A stretch of DNA of 64,000 nucleotides from Nitrososphaerota archaeon (GCA_011605725.1 JAAOZP010000014.1:32001-96000); one strand, 5' to 3'; shown: positions 46,548-60,596, counted from the stretch's first letter. Program-made: numbers and translations. Notes: generated by a model not told the origin, from the letters alone.

Positions 46548-46562
46548 AAAAAGTTAATATAG
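46548..46562 (+). promoter_or_regulatory. BRE/TATA promoter of the leu leader
   Basis: AAAAAGTTAATATAG; TTAATATAG also precedes the ilv leader. Confidence 0.55.
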
Positions 46563-46594
46563 TAGTGGAGCGGTCTCCGCTGAGGAGGTGTATA

Positions 46595-46675
46595 GTGCAC
46601 ATGGCCAGCAACGCCCAAAGGGGGCGAGACTACCTGCGTTGCAGAGACAGCGACACCTCTATCGGAGTCTGCTGA
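46595..46675 (+). CDS. Putative leu leader peptide, 26 aa (MHMASNAQRGRDYLRCRDSDTSIGVC)
   Basis: AGGAGGTG SD, GTG start, AxRGRD shared with the ilv leader, sole Leu at position 14. Confidence 0.7.
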   Translation: MHMASNAQRGRDYLRCRDSDTSIGVC

Positions 46676-46716
46676 AAAACAATATTGTTTTAAACCTGTT
46701 TTAGGAGGGTTTCGTA

Positions 46717-48252
46717 ATGGTTTGGAGAGGATATATTGCTGAGGCTGAAATACCTGGCAGGGTGATTCTTTTCGACACTACTTTAAGAGATGGTGAACAG
46801 ACTCCTGGAGTCGCGCTTACGCCCGAGGACAAGCTTAAGATAGCGAGACAGCTGGACTTGCTTGGAGTACCCGTATTGGAAGCAGGCTTTCCAGCAGCGT
46901 CGCGCGGCGAGGAGGAGGCTATTAAGCAGATAGCTAGAGAAGGGTTGAACGCGGAGGTCGCTGCCTTATCCAGATGCGTGAAGGAGGATGTTGAGAAGAC
47001 TGCTTCAACCGGTGCACGGAGAATACATCTTTTCATAGCAACCTCAGACATACATTTGAATAAGAAGCTGCAGATAAGCAGGGATGAAGCTGTATGCAGA
47101 GCGGTTGAATCCATAGACCTTGCTAAATCCTACGGTATGAAAATAGAGTTTTCAGCTGAGGATGCGACTCGGACGAGCATCGATTTCCTAGTGGAGTTTT
47201 ACAGGAGGGTTGAAGAGGCGGGAGCAAGCATAGTCGACATTCCTGATACTGTTGGTGTTGCAACACCCTTTGCTATGAGGGAGATTGTTAAGAGGGTTCG
47301 CAAAGCCCTGAGGATCCCGGTTGCAGTGCACTGTCACAACGACATGGGTCTAGCAGTTGCGAACACGCTTGCAGGCATTGAGGGCGGAGCCTCTGAGGCG
47401 CATGTAACAATTAATGGACTTGGGGAGAGAGCAGGCAACGCGAGCCTAGAGGAGGTGGCGGTTTCCCTGAAAGTATTGTATGGTGTTGAAACAGGCTTAA
47501 AGTTTAAAGAGATATACAACACTTGCAGGCTTGTCTCACTGATAACTGGCGTAGCAATACCTGTGAATAAGCCTATAGTTGGAGAAAACGCTTTCTCCCA
47601 TGAGAGCGGTATCCATACTCACGGCATACTGGCGTCTCCAGAGACTTACGAGCCTATAGACCCTGGGTTTGTTGGAGCTAGGAGAAAGCTGGTAGCTGGA
47701 AAGCACGCCGGTGTCCACGGGATTTCAGCGCAGCTTGAAGAAATGGGGTACAGGCTTAGTGAGGAGGAGTTGAAACAGGTTCTTAAAATAGTTAAGGATA
47801 TTGGCGACAAGGGTAAGAAGGTTACTGACGCGGAACTCGCCTCGATAGCTGAAAGCGTTATAGGGTACGGGGTCGGTGAGAAGGATCGCATCGAGCTTGA
47901 AGAGCTTCTGGTGGTCACTGGGTTAAACACGACGCCGACAGCAGCAATAAAGATAAGAAGGGGTGAACAGGCTTGGAGAGGAGCGGAGTTCGGAGTGGGG
48001 CCGATAGATGCTTCGATGAAGGCAGTCAGCAAGCTTCTTGGAGACCTGGTTAAGATTAAGCTTGAAAGCTTCAGGTTGGAGGCAATCACGGGAGGCACGG
48101 ATGCGCTTGCAGAAGTTACGGTCAGGGTTTCAGATGAAGAAGGGAGGAGTGTGACTGCGAAGGGATTCAGCGAGGACATTGTGCTAGCAGGGGTTTACGC
48201 GATATTAAACGGGGCTAACAGGCTTCTGCAGATTAAGAGGGCTGGTAGATGA
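46717..48252 (+). CDS. leuA: 2-isopropylmalate synthase (or citramalate synthase)
   Basis: DTTLRDGEQ, HCHND.G, GERAGN, regulatory domain GPIDA. Confidence 0.9.
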   Translation: MVWRGYIAEAEIPGRVILFDTTLRDGEQTPGVALTPEDKLKIARQLDLLGVPVLEAGFPAASRGEEEAIKQIAREGLNAEVAALSRCVKEDVEKTASTGARRIHLFIATSDIHLNKKLQISRDEAVCRAVESIDLAKSYGMKIEFSAEDATRTSIDFLVEFYRRVEEAGASIVDIPDTVGVATPFAMREIVKRVRKALRIPVAVHCHNDMGLAVANTLAGIEGGASEAHVTINGLGERAGNASLEEVAVSLKVLYGVETGLKFKEIYNTCRLVSLITGVAIPVNKPIVGENAFSHESGIHTHGILASPETYEPIDPGFVGARRKLVAGKHAGVHGISAQLEEMGYRLSEEELKQVLKIVKDIGDKGKKVTDAELASIAESVIGYGVGEKDRIELEELLVVTGLNTTPTAAIKIRRGEQAWRGAEFGVGPIDASMKAVSKLLGDLVKIKLESFRLEAITGGTDALAEVTVRVSDEEGRSVTAKGFSEDIVLAGVYAILNGANRLLQIKRAGR

Positions 48253-49514
48253 CGGGTTTAACAGCAGTACAGAAGGTGCTTTCCAGGAAAACAGGCAGGC
48301 CTCGTGTGGAACCTGGTGAAATAGTTGAGGCTAAGGTGGATTTCCTAATGTTGCACGAGGTAACTGGGCCACTGGCTGTCGAAGAGTTTGAAAAAATCTC
48401 TGGAAAAGTCTGGGACCCAAGTAGGGTGATAGTGGTTTTCGACCATGATGTTCCGCCGAGCACGATAGACTTAGCCAACCAGATGAGAAGGATGAGAAGC
48501 TTCGTTAAGAAACACGGGGTAAACAATTTTTTCGAGATAGGCAGGGGAGGTATTGCTCATCAAGTTCTCTTCGAAGAAGGCTTCGACATGCCTGGCTTCC
48601 TGATAGTCGGCGCGGACAGTCATACTTGCACAGCTGGGGCGACTGGCGCAGTTGGAATAGGGGTCGGCTCTACTGATGCTGCTGTTGTCCTAGCAACCGG
48701 AGAGATATGGTTGAGGGTTCCTGAAACACTGTTGGTTGAGGTCAAAGGCAGGCTTAGGAAAGGCGTTTTCGCGAAGGATGTTGCTTTAAGTATCGTTGGG
48801 AGAATTGGCAGCAATGGAGCAACCTATAAGGCTCTGGAGTATTCAGGTGAAACAGTAAGCATGATGTCTCTTTCTGAACGCCTTACTCTTGCAAACCTCT
48901 CCGTGGAGACTGGCGCTAAAACCGGGATTGTTCAGACAGATTCTAAAAGCATTGAGTATGCTGAGAACTCTGGAAGACGCAGCGAGCTACTGGATGTTAG
49001 GAGCGACCCCGACGCGTGCCTGGAGAAAATCGAGATTGATGTTTCAAACTTGGAGCCTGTTGTAAGCCTGCCGCATAGCGTGGATAATGTTAAGCCCGTT
49101 GCAGAAGTTGAAGGCCTTGAGATAGACCAGGCTTTCCTAGGTTCCTGCACGAACGGGAGGCTGGACGATCTTCTCGTAGCCTTCAAGATACTTAAGGGGA
49201 GAAGGGTCGCGCCGAGCGTGAGGCTGGTGGTTAGCCCGGCTTCAGTCAAGGTGTATGCGGAGGCTTTGAGAGCAGGAGTCGTCGAGGAGATTGTGCGGGC
49301 AGGAGGAATAGTGACAAGCCCAACATGTGGTCCCTGCCTCGGAATGTCGAGGGGAGTTCTTGCTGAAGGAGAGGTTGCAGTTTCAAGCAGCAACAGGAAC
49401 TTTATAGGCAGAATGGGTGATAAGAGGAGTAAAGTGTTCCTCGCTTCCCCGGCGACAGTGGTTGCGTCAGCGGTAGAGGGAAGAATAGCTGATCCAAGGA
49501 GGTTTCTGCCTTGA
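48249..49514 (+). CDS. leuC: 3-isopropylmalate dehydratase large subunit
   Basis: GADSHTC, GSCTNGR, CGPCLG, NRNF.GR. Confidence 0.92.
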   Translation: MTGLTAVQKVLSRKTGRPRVEPGEIVEAKVDFLMLHEVTGPLAVEEFEKISGKVWDPSRVIVVFDHDVPPSTIDLANQMRRMRSFVKKHGVNNFFEIGRGGIAHQVLFEEGFDMPGFLIVGADSHTCTAGATGAVGIGVGSTDAAVVLATGEIWLRVPETLLVEVKGRLRKGVFAKDVALSIVGRIGSNGATYKALEYSGETVSMMSLSERLTLANLSVETGAKTGIVQTDSKSIEYAENSGRRSELLDVRSDPDACLEKIEIDVSNLEPVVSLPHSVDNVKPVAEVEGLEIDQAFLGSCTNGRLDDLLVAFKILKGRRVAPSVRLVVSPASVKVYAEALRAGVVEEIVRAGGIVTSPTCGPCLGMSRGVLAEGEVAVSSSNRNFIGRMGDKRSKVFLASPATVVASAVEGRIADPRRFLP

Positions 49515-50008
49515 AGATACGCGGTAGGATTATTAGGCTTGGAGACAACGTGGATACTGACGTGATAATACCTGCAAGATACTTGGTGACTCACGATGCG
49601 GAGGTTCTTGCGAAACATGTTTTCGAAGACTATTATCCTGAATTCAGGGCAAAGGCTTCTGGTGGAGCGATAATAGTTGCCGGAGAGGACTTCGGGCTGG
49701 GGAGCTCAAGAGAGCATGCAGTAATAGCTTTGAAACACTCCGGTGTGAAAGCGATAGTAGCTAAGTCTTTTGCAAGAATCTTCTACAGGAATTCTATCAA
49801 CCTGGGTCTTCCCGCGCTCGTCTTAAGAAGTAATGAGGGTTTTGACAAGCTTAAGGATGGGGATGAGGCTGAGCTTGATGTCTCCAACGGGGTTTTGACG
49901 ATTATCAGAACCGGGGAGAAGTTTTCCTGCGATAAAATGCCTGAATTCATGATGAAAATAATAGAAGCAGGAGGCTTAATAAACTATTTTTTGAAGAAAC
50001 ACGGATGA
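49511..50008 (+). CDS. leuD: 3-isopropylmalate dehydratase small subunit
   Basis: DTDVIIP, FG.GSSREHA, FARIFYRN. Confidence 0.92.
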   Translation: MKIRGRIIRLGDNVDTDVIIPARYLVTHDAEVLAKHVFEDYYPEFRAKASGGAIIVAGEDFGLGSSREHAVIALKHSGVKAIVAKSFARIFYRNSINLGLPALVLRSNEGFDKLKDGDEAELDVSNGVLTIIRTGEKFSCDKMPEFMMKIIEAGGLINYFLKKHG

Positions 50009-50056
50009 AACCCGCTGGAAAACAGGGCCCGATAACTATTTATAAACCGGCTCAGC

Positions 50057-50917
50057 ATGAAACTATTACTGTTGCAGCGGAGAGAAGCAGTTAGAAGGGA
50101 GGCTGTTGGCAGTTATTCCTGCGAGCAGTGTGGGCGTCCACTGAGCCCTGAATACAAGTTCTGCCCAGCCTGCGGAACCCCGCGGAGAGGAGTCTCCTAC
50201 GTTAGGAGGGTTTCAACAGGCAACCCGGCTATAGACGAGATTCTGGAGGGTGGTTTCGAAGTGGGTAAAACATATCTGCTCGCCGGGGAGGCTGGAACCG
50301 GTAAGACGATTTTCAGCTTACAATACCTCTTACACGGGGCTAAGAATAATGAGCCCGGAATATATGTTACGATAGACGAGAGGCCGGAGATGCTTGTTAG
50401 AGACGTGAGGAACTTCGGCTGGGATCTTCAGCCGCTCATAGAGACAAAGAAGCTTGCGATACTCCCGGTTAGGAGATACTTCACCTCCAAGATGTGGGGG
50501 AGGGAAATGGACACTATAGTTAACAACATAATAGAGGAGCTTGACAGGAGGAGGAGGGAGATAGGGGCTAAGAGGCTTGTCATAGATCCTATAGCCCCGT
50601 TGGTAACTACTTATTCGAACGAGGTTGCATGGGTTAGAGAATACATCAGGAGCCTCATATTCTCTATTGAGGAGAAGCTCGGTGTAACCACGGTTATAAC
50701 GTCAGAAGTCCCTACTGGGGAGAACATGATGAGCAGGTATGGTGTTGAAGAGTTTCTGGCGAGCGGCGTAATATTACTATCCCTGTCTAGAGTTGGGAAC
50801 TCCATAATAAGGACGATGTTTATAAGGAAGATGCGCTGGACTGCTGTGAACCCAACGATCTACAGGTTTGAAATAGAAAGGGGTCGTGGAATAGTTCTTA
50901 AAGAACCGTTAAGCTAA
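50057..50917 (+). CDS. KaiC/RAD55-like ATPase with N-terminal zinc ribbon
   Basis: CEQCG...FCPACG; GEAGTGKT; RLVID; RKMR.T. Confidence 0.88.
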   Translation: MKLLLLQRREAVRREAVGSYSCEQCGRPLSPEYKFCPACGTPRRGVSYVRRVSTGNPAIDEILEGGFEVGKTYLLAGEAGTGKTIFSLQYLLHGAKNNEPGIYVTIDERPEMLVRDVRNFGWDLQPLIETKKLAILPVRRYFTSKMWGREMDTIVNNIIEELDRRRREIGAKRLVIDPIAPLVTTYSNEVAWVREYIRSLIFSIEEKLGVTTVITSEVPTGENMMSRYGVEEFLASGVILLSLSRVGNSIIRTMFIRKMRWTAVNPTIYRFEIERGRGIVLKEPLS

Positions 50918-51480
50918 GTCGGCAGCCTGGTTCCACATCTGAAGCAGAATTTGTAGCGCGCATTGTTTATTGCCCCACACTTTGGACAGGTTTTAGTGCC
51001 TGCACTACCAGCCGTCTCCTCGGAAGCAGGCCGCGACGCAACGGTGACGGTTTCAACATGCTCCGGTTCCGCCGCCTCATATTCAGCAGGCTCCTTGAAA
51101 GAGGGCTGGGCCTCAGGAGCCTCCGCTGCACTACTGCTTGGCGCAACCTGGACCTCAGGCTCCTTCGGCACGTACGTGGAGGGTTTTGCTGAAACCTGCT
51201 CCCTAACCTGGGTCTTCGGCTCTTCACGCGTTTCGACAGCCGGCTTCGCCGGCGCAGGGGGTGCAGCTGGAACAGTAACCTCTTTCTTCAATATCACTAT
51301 GTCTTCAGCAGCGTCAACCTCGCTCCAGATGAACTCCATCTCCCTATTGTCTCTCCCGACAACAACTATTCCAACTAGGTTCTCGCCTAAGACAAACCCT
51401 ATGTCTTTAACAGTGCCGACGTATCGGCCCCTCTTATCGTAAACCTGGAGGCCTATTATCTTGTCTTTTCTAATTAGCAA
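50914..51480 (-). CDS. PRC-barrel plus low-complexity linker plus zinc-ribbon protein
   Basis: IG..VYD..G..VGTVKD; Pro/Ala/Glu linker; CPKCG...FCFRCG. Confidence 0.8.
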   Translation of the reverse strand: MLIRKDKIIGLQVYDKRGRYVGTVKDIGFVLGENLVGIVVVGRDNREMEFIWSEVDAAEDIVILKKEVTVPAAPPAPAKPAVETREEPKTQVREQVSAKPSTYVPKEPEVQVAPSSSAAEAPEAQPSFKEPAEYEAAEPEHVETVTVASRPASEETAGSAGTKTCPKCGAINNARYKFCFRCGTRLPT

Positions 51481-51601
51481 CCCGTAGGGAAATTCTCCCG
51501 GGGTGACTTTTATTCTTTATCTTCATATTAGTACACAATGCTAACGGTTTAGATGCTGTGTCAAACAGGCAATGAAACAGTTTAAAGGCATTAGAGGGCC
51601 T

Positions 51602-53134
51602 CTAAGGGCATTTTTCAACCGTGGAGAAGGAGAAGCCCTTGACAAGCCTGCTTACAGCGTTTTCCAGAAGCATCCTAGCCTCCGTGTCTTTCTGAAGCAT
51701 CAGGCTAAGCTTTGAGAAACACTCTTTTAAAACGTTCTCCCTGTCTGCGAGCATCATTTTATCAGCCTCGGGAGAGCCTGCGCCTAAGGATACTCGCTTC
51801 GAAGCGACAGCACTCGCGTCAGCCTCTTTCAGTATTTTCATCAGTAGACCGCTAACGTCTCTGCCTAACACGTTCAGGGAAACACTTTTTAAATCCTCCT
51901 CGTTGAGACTATTCATCTTCCTGCCGGTTTTAACGCTGAGCTTAACAATCTCCCCCACCAACCTGTGGGCAAGCCTGAATGGAACCCTGGCTTCCTCAAC
52001 TATTCTTTCAGCAACATCCAAGGCAATAATGTTTGGCTCAGTTAAAGACCTTATTCTCTCACGGTTCTCCTTAAGATTCTCAAGAACAATTCTAACGATT
52101 CTAACTGCTTCCCTGCTTGTTTCAATAGCCTCGATCAACGGGGGCTTGGTTTCCTGAAGATCTCTAACATAGCCGCTGGGCACTGCCTTGCAAACCATCG
52201 AGAGCTGAGCTAGACTTGAGAAAACCCTTCCTGTTCTCGCACGGGTCAGCTCAAGTATGCAAGGATTCTTCTTATGTGGCATCGCGCTCGATGGGAAAGC
52301 CAGCTCGTCTGGAAGCGTGAAGAAACCGTATTCTGAGGAAAGCCAGATTATAAGGTCCTCCATAATCCTGCTCAGGTTAAGCATGAGAATGTTGAGGTTT
52401 GAAACAACCTCCAGCGCGAAGTCTCTTGACGAAACAGCGTCGAACGAGTTCTCCACAACACCGTCGAACCCTAGGAGCCTCGTAGTGAGACTCCTGTCTA
52501 TCTTAAGCGAGGAGCCGACTATAGCAACGCTCCCTAAAGGATTCTGGTTAACCCTTTTAAAGGATTCTGAGAGTCGGTTAAAGTCTCTCAGAAACACGTC
52601 GAAATACCCTAGGAAATAGTGTGAAAGAGGAGCAACCTGAGCCTGTTGCAGATGAGTGTAGAACGGGAAAACTACGTCAAGAGTCTCTCCAGCCTTCTTT
52701 AGAAGAGTTGCCTCAAGCTTAAGCAGCTCTCCCATAATGCTTAAGACTTCTCTCCTCGTCTTAAGCCTCACCGCCGTGACAACCTGATCATTCCTGGAGC
52801 GAGCCGTGTGAACAAGGCCTCCTACCTCCATCCCAGCCTGCTTAACTACATAAGACTCTATGAGTTCATGAACATCCTCGTACTTTTCAAGGTCGAGCTG
52901 ACTCAAACCTTCCTCTCTAAGCCTTTTAAGAGCCTCAAGAATCTGTTTAAGCTGCTCCTCAGTAATATAGCCCTGTTTCATAAGCATGAGGTCGTGCGCA
53001 ACCGTGCATTCAATATCCTCGTTAAATATCCAAGCGTCTTCCCTAATGCTGGACACGTATCTCGTGGCCTCTGAGGAAACCGGTCCAAGCCTGCTCCTAT
53101 ATATGCCTCCGGAAGCATCCTGCTCCATTGACAA
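51602..53134 (-). CDS. argH: Argininosuccinate lyase
   Basis: HTARSRNDQV, YTHLQ.AQ, SSAMPHKKNP, RDLQE. Confidence 0.95.
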   Translation of the reverse strand: MSMEQDASGGIYRSRLGPVSSEATRYVSSIREDAWIFNEDIECTVAHDLMLMKQGYITEEQLKQILEALKRLREEGLSQLDLEKYEDVHELIESYVVKQAGMEVGGLVHTARSRNDQVVTAVRLKTRREVLSIMGELLKLEATLLKKAGETLDVVFPFYTHLQQAQVAPLSHYFLGYFDVFLRDFNRLSESFKRVNQNPLGSVAIVGSSLKIDRSLTTRLLGFDGVVENSFDAVSSRDFALEVVSNLNILMLNLSRIMEDLIIWLSSEYGFFTLPDELAFPSSAMPHKKNPCILELTRARTGRVFSSLAQLSMVCKAVPSGYVRDLQETKPPLIEAIETSREAVRIVRIVLENLKENRERIRSLTEPNIIALDVAERIVEEARVPFRLAHRLVGEIVKLSVKTGRKMNSLNEEDLKSVSLNVLGRDVSGLLMKILKEADASAVASKRVSLGAGSPEADKMMLADRENVLKECFSKLSLMLQKDTEARMLLENAVSRLVKGFSFSTVEKCP

Positions 53135-53218
53135 CCCTAAGCCGGATGAACCTGCAGAAACATGCTAATAAGGGTTACATGAAAAACGGTTTGAAACATT
53201 CTGAAGGCTTAAAAGCGA

Positions 53219-53305
53219 TCAGCATTTTACGGGTTTCCCTAGAGACAAGTGGTGGCGAGCTAAGATTCTACAAGGGTTGAGACGCCTCCGGTAGTCCAGA
53301 AGCAT
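53219..53305 (-). CDS. Putative argH leader peptide, 28 aa (MLLDYRRRLNPCRILARHHLSLGKPVKC)
   Basis: GGAGTGTG SD-like sequence before ATG; tandem CGG AGG CGT codons; 84 nt upstream of argH. Confidence 0.55.
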   Translation of the reverse strand: MLLDYRRRLNPCRILARHHLSLGKPVKC

Positions 53306-53412
53306 GTGAATCACACTCCACGGAAAGCCTTTCCCCCGGTTTTCTACGCGCGCAAAAAGCAGCGGGCAAAACTTAAAAGGCTCAAAAACAAGTATTTCAA
53401 GAGGAACTCGTC

Positions 53413-54538
53413 ATGCTTATAGAGGAGAAGCTGGATCTCGGAAGACTCGTCACATTCGTGCCCAACAAGCATATTCCAATACATAATTGGTTTTTTCTAT
53501 AAAGAAGGGTTTTCCCGCGACTTCGTAGTTCTTGTGAGTAGACGGCTGGGGCTTGGCGAAGACTCGTGGATGCTGGACCCGTTCTGCGGCGTCGGAACAA
53601 CCCAGTTAACTGGAAAGGAGCTTGGGATAAATACTGTTGGCGTCGACGTGGCTGAGCTTCCTGTTTTCGTCTCCAGGGTTAAGACTGCCGACTATGATGT
53701 TGAGCAGCTCAGGAAGGTTTCTGAAAAAGTTTTCTCGGAAAAATTTAGAAGACCCAGCCTAGGTGGTTTAAGCAGGCTTGTTAGAAGAGCTTTTCCCAAG
53801 CATGTTTTAGAGGACATATTGTTCTTCAGAGAGATTGTTGAAAACATTGAGGATGAGACTGTGAGAAACTTCTTCAAACTCGGTTTAATAAGTGCTGCTA
53901 TGAAAGCATCCTACGTCGTGAAGGACGGCGGCCTCCTTAGAATAGTTAAGGAGAGGAACATCCCGCCTTTCAGAAAGTTTTACAAGAACAGGATTAAGAG
54001 GATGATTAAGGATGTTGAAGCCTCCAGAATGCTTAACCCTAAGGTGTCAACTTTTAAGGCTGACTCGAGAAACCTATGGTTCTTGGAGGATGAAACGTTC
54101 GACGCGGTCGTTACTTCACCACCCTACTTGAACAAGATAGAGTACACCAGGGTTTACAGGGTTGAAAACGAGCTTTTCTTCAAGGGTTCCGAGCCCATGC
54201 TACGCTCATACATAGGTGACGCCGTTAGGCTGACGGAGGATTCTGAAAACACCGGAAACACCCCGGCGATAGTTGAAGCCTATTTCCGAGACCTCCGCAG
54301 GGTTCTGTCCGAGCTTCACCGTGTTCTTAAAAAGAACGGGATGGGTGTTTTCGTCATAGCTCAAGGAGTCTTTCCGACGGGCGTTGTAGAAACAGAGAGA
54401 ATATTCGTTGAAATAGCTGGGGAAACCGGTTTTGAAACCGAGAGGCTCTGGCTAGTCAACAGGAGGGTTGCAACCAGAGACCGTGTCGTCAAGATTGGTT
54501 ATGCAGACGAGTATGTTGTTTTCACACGTAAACTCTGA
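53413..54538 (+). pseudogene. DNA amino-methyltransferase with +1 frameshift in T6 run (53491-53496)
   Basis: DPFCGVGT and TSPPY motifs; removing one T joins IHNWFFYKEGFS to the main ORF. Confidence 0.8.
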
Positions 54539-54544
54539 AAAACT

Positions 54545-55558
54545 TTAAAGCCTGAAACTGGCCTCAATGCTTGGACGTATCGGTTGAGAATCGTAGCCCA
54601 GCCTCCTAAGCTCCCTTGAAAACTCTTCCGGGAAACCGTGGACTGTGAAAACCTTCTCCGGACAGGTTTTCCTAACGATTTCCACCAGGCCGTTGAAATC
54701 AGCATGATCGCTCAACGGGAAAGCCTTGTCAACGCCCAGCGCCTCGCTATACCAGTCGAAAATCGACCTGCCTGAGAAGCTTATGAAGACAGCACCATAC
54801 TTCCTTTTAACAAGCTGCATGAAAGCATTTCTACCGGAGACATTAGGATAGTATAGGGCCCAGGATCCCTCAGGCAGCTCTGGAGACTGGGGTGTGAAAA
54901 CCTTCTTCCCACTTATCCCCATTGAGAAAAGCCTGTAAACATTGTTATACTCTGCTATAGATGGTGAAACATATGTTTCAACAACATCCTGGAGAACAGG
55001 GTCTAAAACCATTTGAACATGTTGAGACTTGCCAAGCGGGTATCCCATTAGAACTATGGGTCTGCCTCTTCTCACTGTTTCACTAACGTAGTCGACAATC
55101 TCGCCTATCAGCTGTCTTCTCGAGGGGAAAACCAGGCCGGGGCGACCATAGTTAGACTCTATTATGAGAGTATGAACCCTTGGGAAGCACGGTTCAGGTA
55201 TGCCCTCAACCGGTGAAGTGTTAACATCTCCCGTGTAAAGAATCCCTCCCCTATCGGTTTCAACAAGCAGGGCTTTAGACCCTAAAATATGGCCTGAGTC
55301 CAGAAGGGTGAAAGGATTGTTCTCAACACGCTTAACTTCAAGCCCCCTGAGCGTGGAAAGAAGCAGAGTCTCCTCCGAGCATACTGCTGAGGCTTTCTTC
55401 GCGTCAGACCTGCCTAAATGGTCGAAGTGCGCGTGAGATATGAAAAGATAGTTGAAAGACTCGTCTGAGCCTGTTTTCAGAAAAGCCTCTCCCCCTTTGA
55501 AGCAGAGGGTTGCGAAACGGTCAAGCTTAACTGAAAAACCCTTGAACGCTGCGGACAT
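54545..55558 (-). CDS. MBL-fold beta-CASP nuclease
   Basis: SHAHFDH, SGHILG, ESNYG, LSDHAD, VHG. Confidence 0.85.
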   Translation of the reverse strand: MSAAFKGFSVKLDRFATLCFKGGEAFLKTGSDESFNYLFISHAHFDHLGRSDAKKASAVCSEETLLLSTLRGLEVKRVENNPFTLLDSGHILGSKALLVETDRGGILYTGDVNTSPVEGIPEPCFPRVHTLIIESNYGRPGLVFPSRRQLIGEIVDYVSETVRRGRPIVLMGYPLGKSQHVQMVLDPVLQDVVETYVSPSIAEYNNVYRLFSMGISGKKVFTPQSPELPEGSWALYYPNVSGRNAFMQLVKRKYGAVFISFSGRSIFDWYSEALGVDKAFPLSDHADFNGLVEIVRKTCPEKVFTVHGFPEEFSRELRRLGYDSQPIRPSIEASFRL

Positions 55559-55561
55559 TGG

Positions 55562-57196
55562 CTAGGTGAAAAACCTGTTTTCCCTCAGCTTAGCTAAAAA
55601 CCGGCTTTCAAGCCTCTTAGCCGGCGGAACCCATTTCCTCCTTCTCTCCTCAAGCTCGTCTCTATCGACAAGCAGGTCCAGCCTTCTTTCCGGCACGTCT
55701 ACAAGTATCTCGTCACCGTCCTCCACGAGCGCTATAGGTCCCCCCAAGTAGGCCTCTGGGGAAACATGGCCTATGGCAATTCCCTTCGTGCCCCCTGAGA
55801 ATCTTCCGTCAGTAACCAGCGCAACCCTTTCAACAAGGTTCCTGCCAACTATTAGCGAGGTCGGCATCAGCATTTCACGCATACCGGGGCCGCCTAGAAG
55901 CCCCTCGTAGCGCACGACAACTACAGTGTCCACAGTGAAATCCTCTTTCTCAAGCGCTTCAACAGCCTCCTCCTCAGAGTTGAAAACCCTAGCCCTGCCT
56001 CTGAACGTTCTAAGCTGAACAGGTGTTCCAGCAAGCTTAATCACAGCGCCCTCCGGCGCCAAGGACCCCCATAGCACCGCTATGCCTCCTTCACCTCTAT
56101 ACGGGTTATCCGGAGAACGTATAAGCATGCCCCTTGGATCTGGAAACTCTTCAACAAGCTCCCGGAGACGCCTACCGGTAACAGTTAAAACATCCAGGTT
56201 AAGATATTTTTTAAGAGTCTTCATGAGCGAGGGGACTCCGCCCGCGTTGTAGAAGTCGATCATGAAGCTCTCGCCGGACGGCCTTATTAGAGCCAGCGTA
56301 GGTATCCTTCTGCTCAGCTCGTCGAAGGTCTTTAGAGGAAGCTCGTACCCAGCCTCCTTGGCTAGAGCGCTCAAGTGGAGAACAGTGTTGGTGGAGCCTC
56401 CGAGAGCATTATCAACAATTATAGCGTTAACAATGCTTTCAGGCTTAACAATATCCTTAAACCTTAAACCCTCCTTCCAGAGTTCCACTATTCGCCTTCC
56501 AGACTCGTATGCAAGAGTCTTCTTACCCTCGTCCTCAGCGTGAGTAGCAGCCATGCCGGGAAGCGATATGCCCATCGCCTCAACCAGGCAAGCCATAGTG
56601 TTAGCAGTGAAAAGGCCGGCGCAGCTTCCGGCGCCGGGGCAAGCAGCCTGTTCAAACTCCCTCAGTTCTTCAAGCGTAATCCTTCCCTCACGGTATTCCC
56701 CGAGCGCTTCGAAGACTGAAACCAAGTCAACCCTCCTGCCTTTGAACAACCCCGGATACATGGGTCCGCCTGTAACGAATATCGACGGAAGATTCAGCCT
56801 GGCTGCTGCCAGCAGGTGGCCGGGAACAATCTTGTCGCATGAAGATATGAAAACCAGGGCGTCGAACACGTGTGCTGAAACCATTATTTCAACCGAGTCG
56901 GCTATGACTTCTCTGCTTGGGAGCGAGAACCTCATTCCATCATGGTTCATCGCAATACCGTCGCAGACAGCGATCGTGTTGAAGATGAAAGGCACCCCGC
57001 CGCTGTCTCTAACACCCTTGGAAACGTTTTCCGCAAGCACGTTGAGGTGAACATGTCCTGGGACAACGTTAGTGAAGGAGTTGACTACACCTATGAAAGG
57101 CTTTTCGAAGTCCTGGTTTCTCAAGCCTATGGCGTGAAGCAGAGACCTGTGCGGAGCCCTGTCCACACCTTTTTTTACAGCGTCGCTCCTCATCAA
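55562..57196 (-). CDS. ilvD: Dihydroxy-acid dehydratase
   Basis: CDG, CDK, FTANTM, GGSTN, TDGRFSG. Confidence 0.96.
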   Translation of the reverse strand: MMRSDAVKKGVDRAPHRSLLHAIGLRNQDFEKPFIGVVNSFTNVVPGHVHLNVLAENVSKGVRDSGGVPFIFNTIAVCDGIAMNHDGMRFSLPSREVIADSVEIMVSAHVFDALVFISSCDKIVPGHLLAAARLNLPSIFVTGGPMYPGLFKGRRVDLVSVFEALGEYREGRITLEELREFEQAACPGAGSCAGLFTANTMACLVEAMGISLPGMAATHAEDEGKKTLAYESGRRIVELWKEGLRFKDIVKPESIVNAIIVDNALGGSTNTVLHLSALAKEAGYELPLKTFDELSRRIPTLALIRPSGESFMIDFYNAGGVPSLMKTLKKYLNLDVLTVTGRRLRELVEEFPDPRGMLIRSPDNPYRGEGGIAVLWGSLAPEGAVIKLAGTPVQLRTFRGRARVFNSEEEAVEALEKEDFTVDTVVVVRYEGLLGGPGMREMLMPTSLIVGRNLVERVALVTDGRFSGGTKGIAIGHVSPEAYLGGPIALVEDGDEILVDVPERRLDLLVDRDELEERRRKWVPPAKRLESRFLAKLRENRFFT

Positions 57197-57203
57197 GTCT
57201 TTT

Positions 57204-58187
57204 TCAACCGTACACCATCGACCTTATTTTCCTTCCAACAGTCTCTATCAAGTGGTTTCTCTCTCTTTCAACGAGAGTCTTCAGAACAACCTGGTTCGAA
57301 CTGTTTTCAAGTATCCACTCTCTTGCGAAAACACCTGTCTGAACATCTTCAAGAAGCTTCCTCATCTTCCTCTTAACATCCTCATCTATAAGATAGGGGC
57401 CGCGCGTAAGACCGCCGTACTTAGCAGTATCGCTGACAGCCTGCCACATGCCGGATAAGCCTTTAGACCAGATCAGGTCGACGATAAGCTTAAGCTCGTT
57501 TAAAACTTCGAAGTAAGCCACCTCAGGCTGGTATCCTGCTTCCACAAGGATTTCGAAGCCGCTTTTAATAAGCGACGAGACTCCGCCGCATAGCACAGCC
57601 TGCTCTCCGAAAAGATCTGTCTCAACCTCCTCCTTGAACGAGGTTTCTATCAAGCCGATCCTGCTTAGCCCCACAGCCTTCCCCAGCTCCCTGACTATTC
57701 TTGAAGCATTACCCGTGTAATCCTGGTGGACAGCTATTAAGCCGGGGACCCCGGTTCCGCGAACATATGCTTCTCTTAAAGCAGGACCAGGCGCCTTGGG
57801 AGCCACGAGGACAACGTCGAGCCAGGGAGAAGGAACTATCTGCCTGTAGTGAATGTTGAAAGCATGCGCGAAAACAAGTGTTGAACCCTTAGAGATGTTC
57901 GGCTCAACATGATCCCTGTAGACAGCCGGTTGAGCAGGATCAGGAATAAGCATTAGAATAATGCTGCTTTTTCTAACTGCCTCACTTATCTCGTAGACTT
58001 CGAAGCCGTCTTCAGAAGCCCTTCTCCAAGACGAGCCTTCTCTTCTCAAGCCTATTATCGTGTTAACACCGCTGTCTCTAATGTTCTTAGCCTGAGCCTC
58101 ACCCTGGGAGCCATAGCCTATCACGGCGACAGTCTTATTCTTAATCAGCTCGATGCTTATTTCATCATCCCTTATTATCCTAGCCAT
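57204..58187 (-). CDS. ilvC: Ketol-acid reductoisomerase
   Basis: GYGSQG, APK.PG, DLFGEQAVLCGG. Confidence 0.96.
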   Translation of the reverse strand: MARIIRDDEISIELIKNKTVAVIGYGSQGEAQAKNIRDSGVNTIIGLRREGSSWRRASEDGFEVYEISEAVRKSSIILMLIPDPAQPAVYRDHVEPNISKGSTLVFAHAFNIHYRQIVPSPWLDVVLVAPKAPGPALREAYVRGTGVPGLIAVHQDYTGNASRIVRELGKAVGLSRIGLIETSFKEEVETDLFGEQAVLCGGVSSLIKSGFEILVEAGYQPEVAYFEVLNELKLIVDLIWSKGLSGMWQAVSDTAKYGGLTRGPYLIDEDVKRKMRKLLEDVQTGVFAREWILENSSNQVVLKTLVERERNHLIETVGRKIRSMVYG

Positions 58188-58231
58188 CCTCAGTCACCCC
58201 TACTCCACGGCTACGTTTTCTTTTAAGCTTT

Positions 58232-58720
58232 TTACTTTCTGAAACGGTTCAAAGTGTGAATCATCACACCGCTCCTCGAGAAGCTTTCAACACGATCTTT
58301 AAACTCCTCCTTAAAGTCGTCGACAACCCTAGGGTCGGCGAGGAGCTCGACGAGAAGCCTGGAGCCGCTCAGCAAGGTTGTTCTAGCCCTATACCTGACC
58401 CTGATATAGTCGCTCACACTAGTGTCACAATCCTTCAGCACAGCTACGAAAGCCTCCCTTATCACATCGTACTCGAGAGAACCTATCTTAACCTCGAAGA
58501 CACATGGGTTTTTCTCAAGAACCTTAACTATGTTTTCAAATTTCTCCTGAGGCAGGCTGAAGGTTAGAGATATCTCCGAGGTCTTCCCGTTCACCATGCC
58601 GACAGTTATCGTGTCAATGTTTATTGCTCTCCTCGCGAATATTGAGGCTATTCTCTCCATCACCCCAGGCATGTTGAGAACCCTGAGCACAACGAACCTC
58701 TTATTCTCGTCTGAAGCCAT
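58232..58720 (-). CDS. ilvN: Acetolactate synthase small subunit
   Basis: N.PGV..RI..IF.RR.INI ACT domain. Confidence 0.9.
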   Translation of the reverse strand: MASDENKRFVVLRVLNMPGVMERIASIFARRAINIDTITVGMVNGKTSEISLTFSLPQEKFENIVKVLEKNPCVFEVKIGSLEYDVIREAFVAVLKDCDTSVSDYIRVRYRARTTLLSGSRLLVELLADPRVVDDFKEEFKDRVESFSRSGVMIHTLNRFRK

Positions 58721-58728
58721 TTTCCACC

Positions 58729-60402
58729 CTACCTCCTTACGATGACTCTGTCAAGCGGGGCAGCCGGGGGAACCATTGGGAAAACATTATCCTCTCTCGC
58801 GACAATCACGTCTAACACAGTTGTCTCATCCTGCTTTAAAGCGGTTTCAAGAGCGTTTTTAAGCTCGCTTATCCTCGTCACTTTAAACCCTTTAGCGCCG
58901 AAACCCTCTGAAACCCTAGCTATGTCAGCTCTGCCCTTCAAATCCACAGCCATATACCTCCTGCCGTAGAAAAGCTCCTGCCACTGTCTAACCATGCCCA
59001 GGAAATAATTGTTAAGAACCAAGACTATGATCGGCAGGTTATAGTCTACTGAAACCGGAAGCTGGTTACAAGTCATGAAGAAGCTACCGTCTCCAGCTAT
59101 GTCGAAAACACGGCTCTCCGGGAAGGCTGCTTTAACCCCGATCGCAGCCGGAAGCCCGAAGCCCATTGTGCCAAGTCCGCCGGAGGATATGAATTGTCTC
59201 GGACGCTTAGCTGTAAAGTGGAGTGAAGCATACATCTGGCACTGGCCTACCTCCGTCGTCACAAAGTCTTCAGCCTTAACATAGTCGTTCAGAACCCTTA
59301 CGGCAGTACTTGGATCAACCGGAACAGCATCGTAATCGTAAAGGAACTCAGATTCCTTCTTGAGCTGTTTAACTCTTTCACCCCACGTAGCAGCCTTGCC
59401 CTTCTTGAAAAGCCTGAGAATCGTTTCGCGAATCCTGATTAAAACCTGCTTAGCGTCACCGGCGACGCCAAGGTCGGGCTTAAGCAGCTTCCCGATTTCA
59501 GACCTATCTATGTCAACATGTATCTTCCTCGCTCCCGGGGCGAAGCCGCTTAACTTACCAGTAGTCCTGTCGCTAAACCTCATGCCTACTGCAAGAATCA
59601 GGTCGCTCTCCTGAACAGCCTTGATCGCGCCTAGCTTCCCATGCATTCCAACCATGCCTAGGGACAACGGATGGTCTTCAGGAATGCTTCCCTTGCCCAT
59701 TAGAGTCGTCGCTACGGGAGCGTTTAGAAGCTCAGCAAGGGCGATAAGCTCGCTGGACGCGCCTGATATTATTACTCCGCCTCCAGCTATGATCACAGGC
59801 CTCTCAGCCTCAACCAGCATCTTTGAGACTGTTAGAATCTCCTCGTCGGAGGGAGAGGGAGGAGTATAAGAGTAGATGTAGAAATCGTCATCAGGCTCGC
59901 CCTCCATCAGCTGAACATCCCTAGGGACGTCGATGTGAACAGGCCCAGGTCTTCCGGATAAGGCTATTTTAAAAGCGTTCTCAAGCGCAGAGTTAAGCTC
60001 GTTTAAGTCTCTAGGTAGAAAGTTCATCTTCGTCAACCCTATCATCATCGAGAAAACATTAGCCTCCTGAAAACCGTCGTAACCTATGAGAGGCGTCGCA
60101 ACCTGGCCGGCTATGCTTAAAACCGGCGAGGAATCCAAGTAGGCGTTGGCAATTCCTGTTGCAAGATTAGTGGCGCCAGGGCCGGATGTGGCGACGACAA
60201 CGCCAATCCTGCCGGTTGCCCTAGCATACCCGTCAGCCATGTGGGCAGCACCCTGCTCATGCCTCGCGAGAATGAACTCTATGTCGCCAGCCTTATAAAG
60301 CTCGTCTAGAAACGGGAGCACAGCCCCACCGGGTACTCCGAAGATGGTTTTAACCCCGTTCTCCCTCAGCTTCTCAACTAGTAGTCTAGACCCTGAAACC
60401 AT
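58729..60402 (-). CDS. ilvB: Acetolactate synthase large subunit
   Basis: FG.PGG, RHEQ, SGGLGTMG, GDGSF, GMVRQWQ; ATG 60402 follows GAGGTG. Confidence 0.96.
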   Translation of the reverse strand: MVSGSRLLVEKLRENGVKTIFGVPGGAVLPFLDELYKAGDIEFILARHEQGAAHMADGYARATGRIGVVVATSGPGATNLATGIANAYLDSSPVLSIAGQVATPLIGYDGFQEANVFSMMIGLTKMNFLPRDLNELNSALENAFKIALSGRPGPVHIDVPRDVQLMEGEPDDDFYIYSYTPPSPSDEEILTVSKMLVEAERPVIIAGGGVIISGASSELIALAELLNAPVATTLMGKGSIPEDHPLSLGMVGMHGKLGAIKAVQESDLILAVGMRFSDRTTGKLSGFAPGARKIHVDIDRSEIGKLLKPDLGVAGDAKQVLIRIRETILRLFKKGKAATWGERVKQLKKESEFLYDYDAVPVDPSTAVRVLNDYVKAEDFVTTEVGQCQMYASLHFTAKRPRQFISSGGLGTMGFGLPAAIGVKAAFPESRVFDIAGDGSFFMTCNQLPVSVDYNLPIIVLVLNNYFLGMVRQWQELFYGRRYMAVDLKGRADIARVSEGFGAKGFKVTRISELKNALETALKQDETTVLDVIVAREDNVFPMVPPAAPLDRVIVRR

Positions 60403-60447
60403 TTGAAACACCTCTTGCAAACGGCTTTTTGAAAACCACTGTTTTCT

Positions 60448-60531
60448 CTAGCGGAGGCTGGGTTTGCAGCGGGACTCCTGCAGTTGGTGGACGGTGTCCC
60501 GCCCCCTTGGAGCGTGAATATTATGGTACAC
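60448..60531 (-). CDS. Putative ilv leader peptide, 27 aa (MYHNIHAPRGRDTVHQLQESRCKPSLR)
   Basis: AGGAGGTG SD, GTG start, AxRGRD at the same positions as in the leu leader, Val at position 14. Confidence 0.7.
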   Translation of the reverse strand: MYHNIHAPRGRDTVHQLQESRCKPSLR

Positions 60532-60596
60532 TCAGCGCACCTCCTAAGCAGTGTGCCCATTGAGAGGCCTATATTAATCTTTCCCCCCTAAGCTGG

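Follow-up and report, generated by a model that had tools for sequence, protein, structure and literature searches.

A paired leader before leuACD and ilvBNCD in a Nitrososphaerota archaeon: a candidate sensor of tRNA charging with an open +1 frame

In bacteria, the control of amino-acid operons by the translating ribosome is textbook knowledge. In the enterobacterial leu, ilvBN and ilvGMEDA attenuators, a short open reading frame (ORF) that is led by a Shine-Dalgarno (SD) sequence and carries cognate codons precedes the operon, RNA elements inside this ORF are conserved at the nucleotide level, and a hungry codon is expected to lead to higher expression. The open literature yielded bacterial leaders only, and a characterised archaeal counterpart was not found there. 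Here we describe two leaders that share these traits and precede the same types of operon, leuACD (+ strand) and ilvBNCD (- strand), in a stretch of 64,000 nucleotides from a Nitrososphaerota archaeon (GCA_011605725.1, JAAOZP010000014.1:32001-96000; "the window" below means this whole stretch). In the window, leuA, leuC and leuD stand on one side, ilvB, ilvN, ilvC and ilvD on the other, and argH lies between them. Each leader combines a promoter, an SD sequence of its own (SD1), a mini-ORF with an SD-like G-run followed by a codon for the cognate amino acid, an anti-SD box, and a second SD sequence (SD2) before the first gene of the operon. Comparison across genomes indicates that the leu and ilv leaders are a real, conserved, genus-specific and paralogous regulatory pair. 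That they are translated, cis-acting leaders, which would sense tRNA charging at one cognate codon and control the first gene of leuACD or ilvBNCD, is in our estimation about evenly poised.

The resemblance to described systems is partial in every case. Differently from the enterobacterial attenuators, the leaders carry no run of cognate codons, but one CTG in leu (two Leu codons in three of the leaders) and one GTC, with a CTG three codons further on, in ilv; they have no GC-rich terminator/antiterminator pair, belong to an archaeal host and show no sequence or profile relationship to the bacterial leaders. With translational attenuators of the ermC/cat type they share a leader ORF, a main SD that a complementary box may mask, and pairing alternatives that depend on the position of the ribosome. 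However, the signal here would be tRNA charging and not an antibiotic, the box is an anti-SD in the literal sense, with the SD of the leader itself as its best partner, and the predicted changes in accessibility are small. Sites of +1 shifting of the prfB (RF2) and Ty1 type likewise have an SD-like run (consensus AGGGGG in prfB), a slow A-site codon followed by C, and an open +1 frame, whereas the spacer here measures 6 and not 3 nt, the P-site codon is variable instead of slippery (CUU U in prfB), and a shift would deliver the ribosome to the next gene and not produce a fused protein. A further parallel is the ilvB-II motif of Corynebacterium ilvBNC (PMC10272879), a conserved "RNA motif" upstream of ilvB that proved to be a regulatory upstream ORF (uORF), although it is bacterial and unrelated in sequence. 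SecM/TnaC-type arrest peptides differ from the present leaders, in which codons are frozen, residue x of the shared motif is variable and a G10R variant exists, and so do riboswitch- and T-box-like leaders, since no compact covarying fold and no family match are found here.

The likeness between the two leaders is not due to chance, since AGGGGGCGRGAC occurs only twice in the whole 2.23-Mb assembly, once in each leader. The host, an uncultured hot-spring archaeon, belongs to a genus of Brockarchaeota that is represented by 17 genomes, and the same leader stands before leuA and ilvB in the 16 other species-level genomes of this genus, wherever these regions are assembled. A covariance model built from 31 leaders gave exactly two strong matches (E <= 1e-12) per genome in the 15 genus genomes with both operons assembled and one in genome G001; beyond the leu and ilv copies no further match below E 0.04 was obtained in the genus genomes, and nine genomes of four other genera of the order held no copy. 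A pattern scan of 185,000 species genomes returned, together with four chance matches, hot-spring metagenome-assembled genomes (MAGs) labelled Candidatus Brockarchaeota (a phylum described in PMC8065059), Thermoproteota or Nitrososphaerota, each with two matches. A few GC-rich matches in bacteria and in a Thermoplasmata MAG, from the genome and metagenome pattern scans, are without the leader layout and were dismissed as chance. Scanning of metagenome contigs added variants, for a total of 22 distinct leu and 24 distinct ilv leaders (46 in all). The public sequencing runs with strong matches are all hot-spring DNA metagenomes, with no RNA run listed among them. The element is confined to the leu and ilv units, and a general system over amino-acid operons is not supported. 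A genome-wide scan for SD-led ORFs of 10-40 codons followed by an SD-led gene gave 12 matches and no convincing further leader, the filter being so narrow that it missed even the ilv leader, whose SD2 is GAGGTG. A segmental duplication extending past the leader was also considered and rejected, as the genes that precede the leu and the ilv leader are not paralogous to each other.

On rereading in the window, both leaders were found where they had initially been annotated and with the common layout described at that time (TATA box, SD, GTG start, 26-27 codons, and a gap of 41-45 nt to the first gene). The leu leader (+ strand) has the following parts.

46549-46562 (+): promoter, consisting of an AAAAG resembling a B recognition element (BRE) and the TATA box TTAATATAG (TATA at 46554-46562); invariant in 16 orthologues
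46583-46590 (+): SD1 region AGGAGGTG, with SD1 GGAGGTG at 46584-46590, the inferred RNA 5' end; invariant in 46/46 leaders
46595-46675 (+): mini-ORF in frame 0, with GTG at 46595, an alternative ATG at 46601, 26 codons and TGA at 46673-46675
46612-46626 (+): hairpin H1, CGCCC and GGGCG around an AAAGG loop
46618-46629 (+): invariant core AAGGGGGCGAGA, an SD-like G-run plus the rare Arg codon CGA
46634-46637 (+): cognate codon CTG (codon 14) and the following C, starting 9 nt after the G-run
46653-46660 (+): anti-SD box ACACCTCT, pairing with SD1 over 8 bp
46620-46742 (+): +1 frame, stop-free from the G-run to past the leuA ATG; it crosses the frame-0 stop, the anti-SD box, the U-rich spacer and SD2, and ends at TGA 46740-46742
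46676-46716 (+): U-rich spacer with SD2 AGGAGG (46703-46708) and a conserved TTTTAGGAGG block
46717 (+): ATG of leuA, 41 nt after the stop of the mini-ORF

The ilv leader (- strand) is built in the same way.

60569-60582 (-): promoter, a BRE-like GAAAG and the TATA box TTAATATAG (60577-60569)
60538-60544 (-): SD1 GGAGGTG
60448-60531 (-): mini-ORF in frame 0, with GTG at 60531, 27 codons and TAG at 60450-60448
60500-60514 (-): hairpin H1, CGCTCC and GGGGCG around an AAG loop
60497-60508 (-): invariant core AAGGGGGCGGGA
60489-60492 (-): cognate Val codon GTC (codon 14) and the following C, invariant in 24/24 ilv leaders
60483-60481 (-): conserved Leu codon CTG (codon 17)
60453-60458 (-): anti-SD box GCCTCC, just 5' of the frame-0 stop
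60378-60506 (-): +1 frame, stop-free from the G-run to past the ilvB ATG (60402-60400); it crosses SD2 GAGGTG (60414-60409) and ends at TAG 60380-60378
60402 (-): ATG of ilvB, 45 nt after the stop of the mini-ORF

The mechanically called ORF of ilvB begins at a TTG (60420, -); we place its true start at ATG 60402, because of the conserved GAGGTG SD and the ATGGTTTCAGG that all orthologues have in common. Two ilv clades have a mini-ORF of 20 codons. Codon 14 specifies the end product of each operon, as had been proposed: CTG before leu is invariant in 22/22 leaders, with C as the following base in 21 of them, and GTC before ilv in 24/24. Frame 0 is open in all 46 leaders.

The motif A7-x-R9-G10-R11-D12 does stand in identical register in the two peptides, and had been taken for the signature of an arrest peptide. 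As judged from codon choice, the shared A-x-RGRD is instead an RNA-level (or DNA-level) signal, AAGGGGGCGRGA, which is invariant at third codon positions. As a baseline we scored codon use in IlvB and LeuA at the positions where the residue does not change among the same genomes, and found that only 8.2% and 8.3% of these, respectively, use a single codon, 92% using two or more. By contrast, seven of the nine invariant residues of the ilv leader (TAC, GCT, CCA, AGG, GTC, CAA and CTG) and four of the five of the leu leader (AGG, GGG, CGA and CTG) are single-codon. The binomial estimates against this baseline, of order 1e-6 for ilv and 1e-4 for leu, are overstated, since neighbouring sites and related genomes are non-independent. 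The variable codon x can be CCA, CAA, AAA, CTA, CGA or ATA (P, Q, K, L, R or I), its third base always being A. AAGGGGG is invariant in 45/46 leaders, and the remaining one, from a single species, has AAGGAGG, a perfect SD, whereby RGRD becomes RRRD. Within the core, AGG and GGG never vary, although AGA makes up 31% of Arg codons and GGA, GGC and GGT 22-28% each of Gly codons genome-wide. The Arg residue after the G-run is encoded only by CGA or CGG, which at 3% and 5% are the least used codons for Arg. The frozen codons, the NNA codon with its changing residue and the AAGGAGG variant together argue that the signal acts at the nucleotide and not at the peptide level. The synonymous differences pointed out previously (GCC/GCT, CGA/CGG) are real, but third-position invariance dominates and the pattern is not that of a coding sequence. 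Note also that the cognate codon begins 9 nt after the G-run, which agrees with the modal distance of 8-9 nt between GGAGG and start codon in this genome. The leaders have no match in Rfam, at gathering thresholds or with E up to 10, and the three leader peptides annotated initially (leu, ilv and argH) have none in Pfam or NCBIfam, nor did the literature searched contain an equivalent.

The mini-ORF is probably translated, as suggested by the conservation of its signals. Elsewhere in this genome, genes that look leaderless have AAAGNTTWAWATA-type BRE/TATA promoters 22-27 nt before their ATG, and this spacing puts the presumptive transcription start site (TSS) of leu at about 46582-46586, with the 5' end of the leader at or just before SD1. 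SD1 is invariant, with a GTG 6 nt downstream of it that is conserved in 24/24 ilv leaders. This site, codon -8 counted from AGG, has decayed to ATA, ACA, GCA or GTA in nine leu leaders, all of which retain an in-frame ATG at -6; the leu leader of the window carries both start codons, the ATG two codons downstream of the GTG. Stop positions are fixed within clades, while TAG, TAA and TGA interchange there; for ilv, all three stops occur at one position across three clades. The motif frame is open in every leader (22/22 for leu), which is weak evidence for ilv, because another frame is open there too. Internal initiation from the G-run was considered and rejected, since no start codon stands at a suitable distance in any frame (GTC does in ilv).

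The stop-free +1 frame is a new observation of this analysis. From the G-run up to the region of the main start it is open in 46/46 leaders; between the motif and the main ATG, stop triplets summed over all leaders amount to 94 in frame 0, 3 in +1 and 52 in +2. The first +1 stop lies 14-34 nt past the main ATG in 41/46 leaders. In two leu leaders it overlaps this ATG as TAATG, and in the one ilv clade whose +1 frame would run into ilvB it is a TGA that precedes the ATG by 6 nt. A TAA stands in the +1 frame directly 5' of GGG in four leu leaders, and from the G-run onwards the +1 frame of leu contains no start codon (two leaders have an ATG just upstream). Ribosomes could therefore reach this frame only if they shifted at the G-run or beyond it. 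The distances from AGG to ATG in the leu clades (98, 95, 89 and 83 nt) differ by multiples of three. Dinucleotide shuffles put the probability of an open frame at 0.09-0.28 for each spacer type of leu and at 0.14-0.52 for each of ilv, and with about 3-5 independent spacer types per paralogue it appears unlikely that the +1 frame is open by chance (roughly 1e-4 or lower). A -1 shift was rejected, as the leu +2 frame has early stops. In the ilv leaders (60378-60531, -, in the window), all three frames past the G-run are unusually open.

In H1 (CGCYC(C) with GGGGCG), whose 3' arm is the G-run, 96-99% of cells are paired, whereas slid partners reach 35-66%; C to U opposite an invariant G is the sole type of change, and no compensatory change was seen. 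In ilv only, the G-run may alternatively pair downstream with CCGTCCNCC (60493-60485), which includes the Val codon; each of its two mutually exclusive and never-varying partners, CGCTCC upstream and CCGTCCNCC downstream, has 99% of cells paired, again with no covariation. An anti-SD box (ACACCTCT, CACCTCC or GCCTCC) is present close to the frame-0 stop of all leaders. Its reading frame in leu is not the one in ilv, and where ilv clades have a 20-codon ORF the box falls outside it, from which we take it to be an element acting at the nucleotide level. Its duplex energies are -11 to -15 kcal/mol with SD1 and -5 to -11 kcal/mol with SD2, and the helix of SD1 with the anti-SD box has 92-98% of cells paired against 40-66% when slid (97.7% against 40-61% in leu). 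Compared with shuffled sequence, folding is better for the ilv leader (z = -2.36) but not for leu (z = -0.23), and a compact fold common to both was not found. A consensus scan revealed no bacterial-type terminator in either leader, and the ilv clade L011-L014 has no T-run of four or more. The AAAAC/GTTTT hairpin that had been reported just after the stop is present in this genome; however, it is missing from about half of the orthologous leaders, and this weak stem of five mostly A-U pairs is confined to close relatives. The initial idea of leader-peptide attenuation thus survives as far as a probably translated leader with an invariant cognate codon is concerned, but not with a terminator or hairpin of bacterial style.

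How such a leader may work is best approached through the +1 frame. A programmed +1 frameshift attenuator that responds to a hungry codon, with the shifted ribosomes reaching the start of leuA or ilvB, is put forward here tentatively, as a possible mechanism that is rather less probable than not, but is the variant that accounts for the most features and the one we prefer. In this model, in which the TSS, translation, pausing, frameshift and direction of regulation are all inferred from the sequence features described above, SD1 at or near the RNA 5' end would load ribosomes onto the mini-ORF of 20-27 codons. With charged tRNA plentiful, they would stay in frame 0 and stop 32-54 nt before the main start, too far for translational coupling, which in E. 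coli and Haloferax weakens at distances above about 30 nt (PMC12548453), and the anti-SD box would be available for masking a ribosome-binding site. Under a shortage of charged Leu- or Val-tRNA, the SD-like run would engage the 16S tail while the hungry CTG or GTC stands in the decoding centre, and a fraction of the ribosomes held at this slow codon would move to the +1 frame. These would traverse the spacer and SD2 to the main start, where they may unmask SD2 or re-initiate, and would on their way keep the U-rich spacer covered and protected from termination, archaeal termination and polarity involving U-tracts and FttA/aCPSF1 (PMC8716108, PMC11616081, PMC12548453). There is precedent for the single steps: at the +1 site of prfB, the SD-like run AGGGGG precedes an A-site codon that is read slowly and is followed by a conserved C (PMC12421855), and in vitro a +1 shift at a hungry sense codon is stimulated when an SD duplex or a hairpin lies upstream (PMC6321510).

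Several points weigh against this frameshift model. There is one cognate codon and not a run of them. The would-be P-site codon is variable (UAC, AAC, CAC, AAU, ACC or CCC), and only CCC-G re-pairs in the +1 frame; it lies 6 nt from the SD-like run, compared with 3 nt in prfB. The greater complementarity of the anti-SD box to SD1 than to SD2 is left unexplained, and equilibrium folding with ribosome-occupied states shifts the accessibility of SD2 only slightly, in a non-uniform and clade-dependent manner. No real covariation (0-1 double-sided changes) was found in any helix of the leu and ilv leaders. The 46 leaders are related, so that the independent spacer types number effectively about 4-5 per paralogue, and in the GC-rich ilv sequence the +2 frame, too, is nearly stop-free up to the ilvB start, which makes +1 openness weak evidence there. 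Finally, for archaea only one case of recoding, a -1 shift, is given in a review of the subject, which names no +1 shift and no leader or attenuation system (PMC8211752).

A rival explanation is a stall-dependent RNA switch of the ermC type that works without frameshift, the anti-SD box pairing with SD1, the G-run or SD2; we judge this unlikely, though less so than the other rivals. Active loading at SD1 would leave the box masking SD2 (off). If one ribosome stalled at codon 14 while another waited over the start codon, SD1 would be left to capture the box and SD2 would open (on). Such a switch would account for a box that is conserved in all leaders irrespective of frame and ORF, and for the pairing of its helix with SD1, which shows one T-A to C-G change at the helix end and is selected by the consensus fold in both sets. 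With SD1 blocked, the local minimum free energy (MFE) structure often pairs the box with SD2, and the modelled accessibility of SD2 drops on occupation of SD1, from 0.54 to 0.42 in leu and from 0.55 to 0.15 in the ilv L011 clade (65 C). These modelled effects are nevertheless small and absent in ilv clade A, the helix lacks real covariation in leaders of which leu folds like its shuffles, and the open +1 frame, the indels in multiples of three and the fixed 9-nt spacing between G-run and cognate codon would have no explanation. The same holds for start turnover, stop interchange, the operon-specific codon and the open +1 frame if a trans-acting RNA-binding protein or a small ligand recognised the core GCYNNAAGGGGGCGRGAY or H1, the mini-ORF being incidental or serving ribosome loading only. 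The 12 contiguous invariant nucleotides common to two otherwise diverged paralogues, with frozen third positions, and the compatibility of H1 with all sequences would suit such a factor, but there is no Rfam match, covariation or compact fold common to both leaders (leu z = -0.23, ilv z = -2.36), and we hold this reading to be improbable.

The remaining explanations are less probable still. A leader that senses nothing and merely sets a fixed expression level or stabilises the mRNA 5' end could contain a single Leu or Val codon like almost any peptide of 26 residues; this becomes quite improbable considering that the cognate codon is invariant, differs between the paralogues as expected and is locked 9 nt after an SD-like run, and that the element is restricted to the two branched-chain amino acid (BCAA) units. 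We give very little credence to a DNA operator, that is, a transcription-factor site for a roadblock repressor common to both operons, although in both promoters a fixed spacing does separate the TATA box from the invariant block. The block begins some 35-50 nt past the presumptive TSS and, apart from the short hairpin, shows neither dyad nor direct-repeat symmetry, the variation between C and T facing an invariant G fits only G-U pairs in the sense RNA, and SD-likeness, anti-SD complementarity and the frame features are properties of RNA and translation. Equally slight is the probability that A-x-RGRD is a nascent arrest peptide which stalls the ribosome at D-x-[cognate codon], as first annotated: the register is the same in both leaders, and CGA/CGG and GAC/GAT do vary synonymously, but AGG and GGG are frozen despite common synonyms, residue x varies while its third base is fixed, one species has RRRD, and no Pfam or NCBIfam family matches.

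The third leader that had been assigned to the system, upstream of argH, does not belong to it.

53219-53314 (-): ORF with DYRRR upstream of argH, not part of the system

This ORF is specific to the present genome, lying inside a stretch of about 170-190 nt that is missing from all 15 other genomes of the genus, and on this ground it is treated as a chance frame. In those genomes (L048-L062) a TATA-like TTTTAAGTTTT upstream of argH is followed directly, about 40 nt later, by an invariant box ATGTAACCCTTATTAGC; in the present genome the insert (window 53135-53400, -) separates TTTTAAGTTTT and ATGTAACCCTTATTAGC, with CTTTTAAG on both sides. A miniature inverted-repeat transposable element (MITE) or other repeat as its origin was rejected, the insert being single-copy in the genome. 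The ATGTAACCCTTATTAGC box could be an operator or a separate argH leader element. As for the other neighbours, a gene for a KaiC/RadA-like ATPase (+) directly follows leuD and converges on a gene for a PRC-barrel and zinc-ribbon protein (-), the two occupying 50057-51480 of the window, and no leuB adjoins leuACD within it.

A different kind of putative leader was seen in two complete genomes from another family of the phylum (L025 and L026), where ORFs of 17-18 codons about 50-70 nt upstream of ilvB end in LVLVELVL or VLLVVLL. They lie about 102-51 nt (L025) and 124-70 nt (L026) upstream of ilvB, contain the Leu/Val codon runs MTYILTQPFLVLVELVL and MSIKSTKIIGNVLLVVLL, and look like classical leader peptides, which raises the prior for ribosome-sensed BCAA leaders in archaea. 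A uORF upstream of ilvB in two further loci (L022 and L023) was dropped, since a stop truncates one of the two.

The first reading is corrected in that its striking "peptide motif" turns out to be an RNA signal. Should the frameshift model be true, these leaders would represent the first +1 recoding and the first ribosome-sensed operon control described in archaea, as well as a mode of amino-acid sensing not known in any domain, that is, a new route from tRNA charging to gene expression. If only the SD/anti-SD switch were true, this would still be the first archaeal translational attenuator. With about 140 nt, the leader is a compact candidate for mutational dissection.

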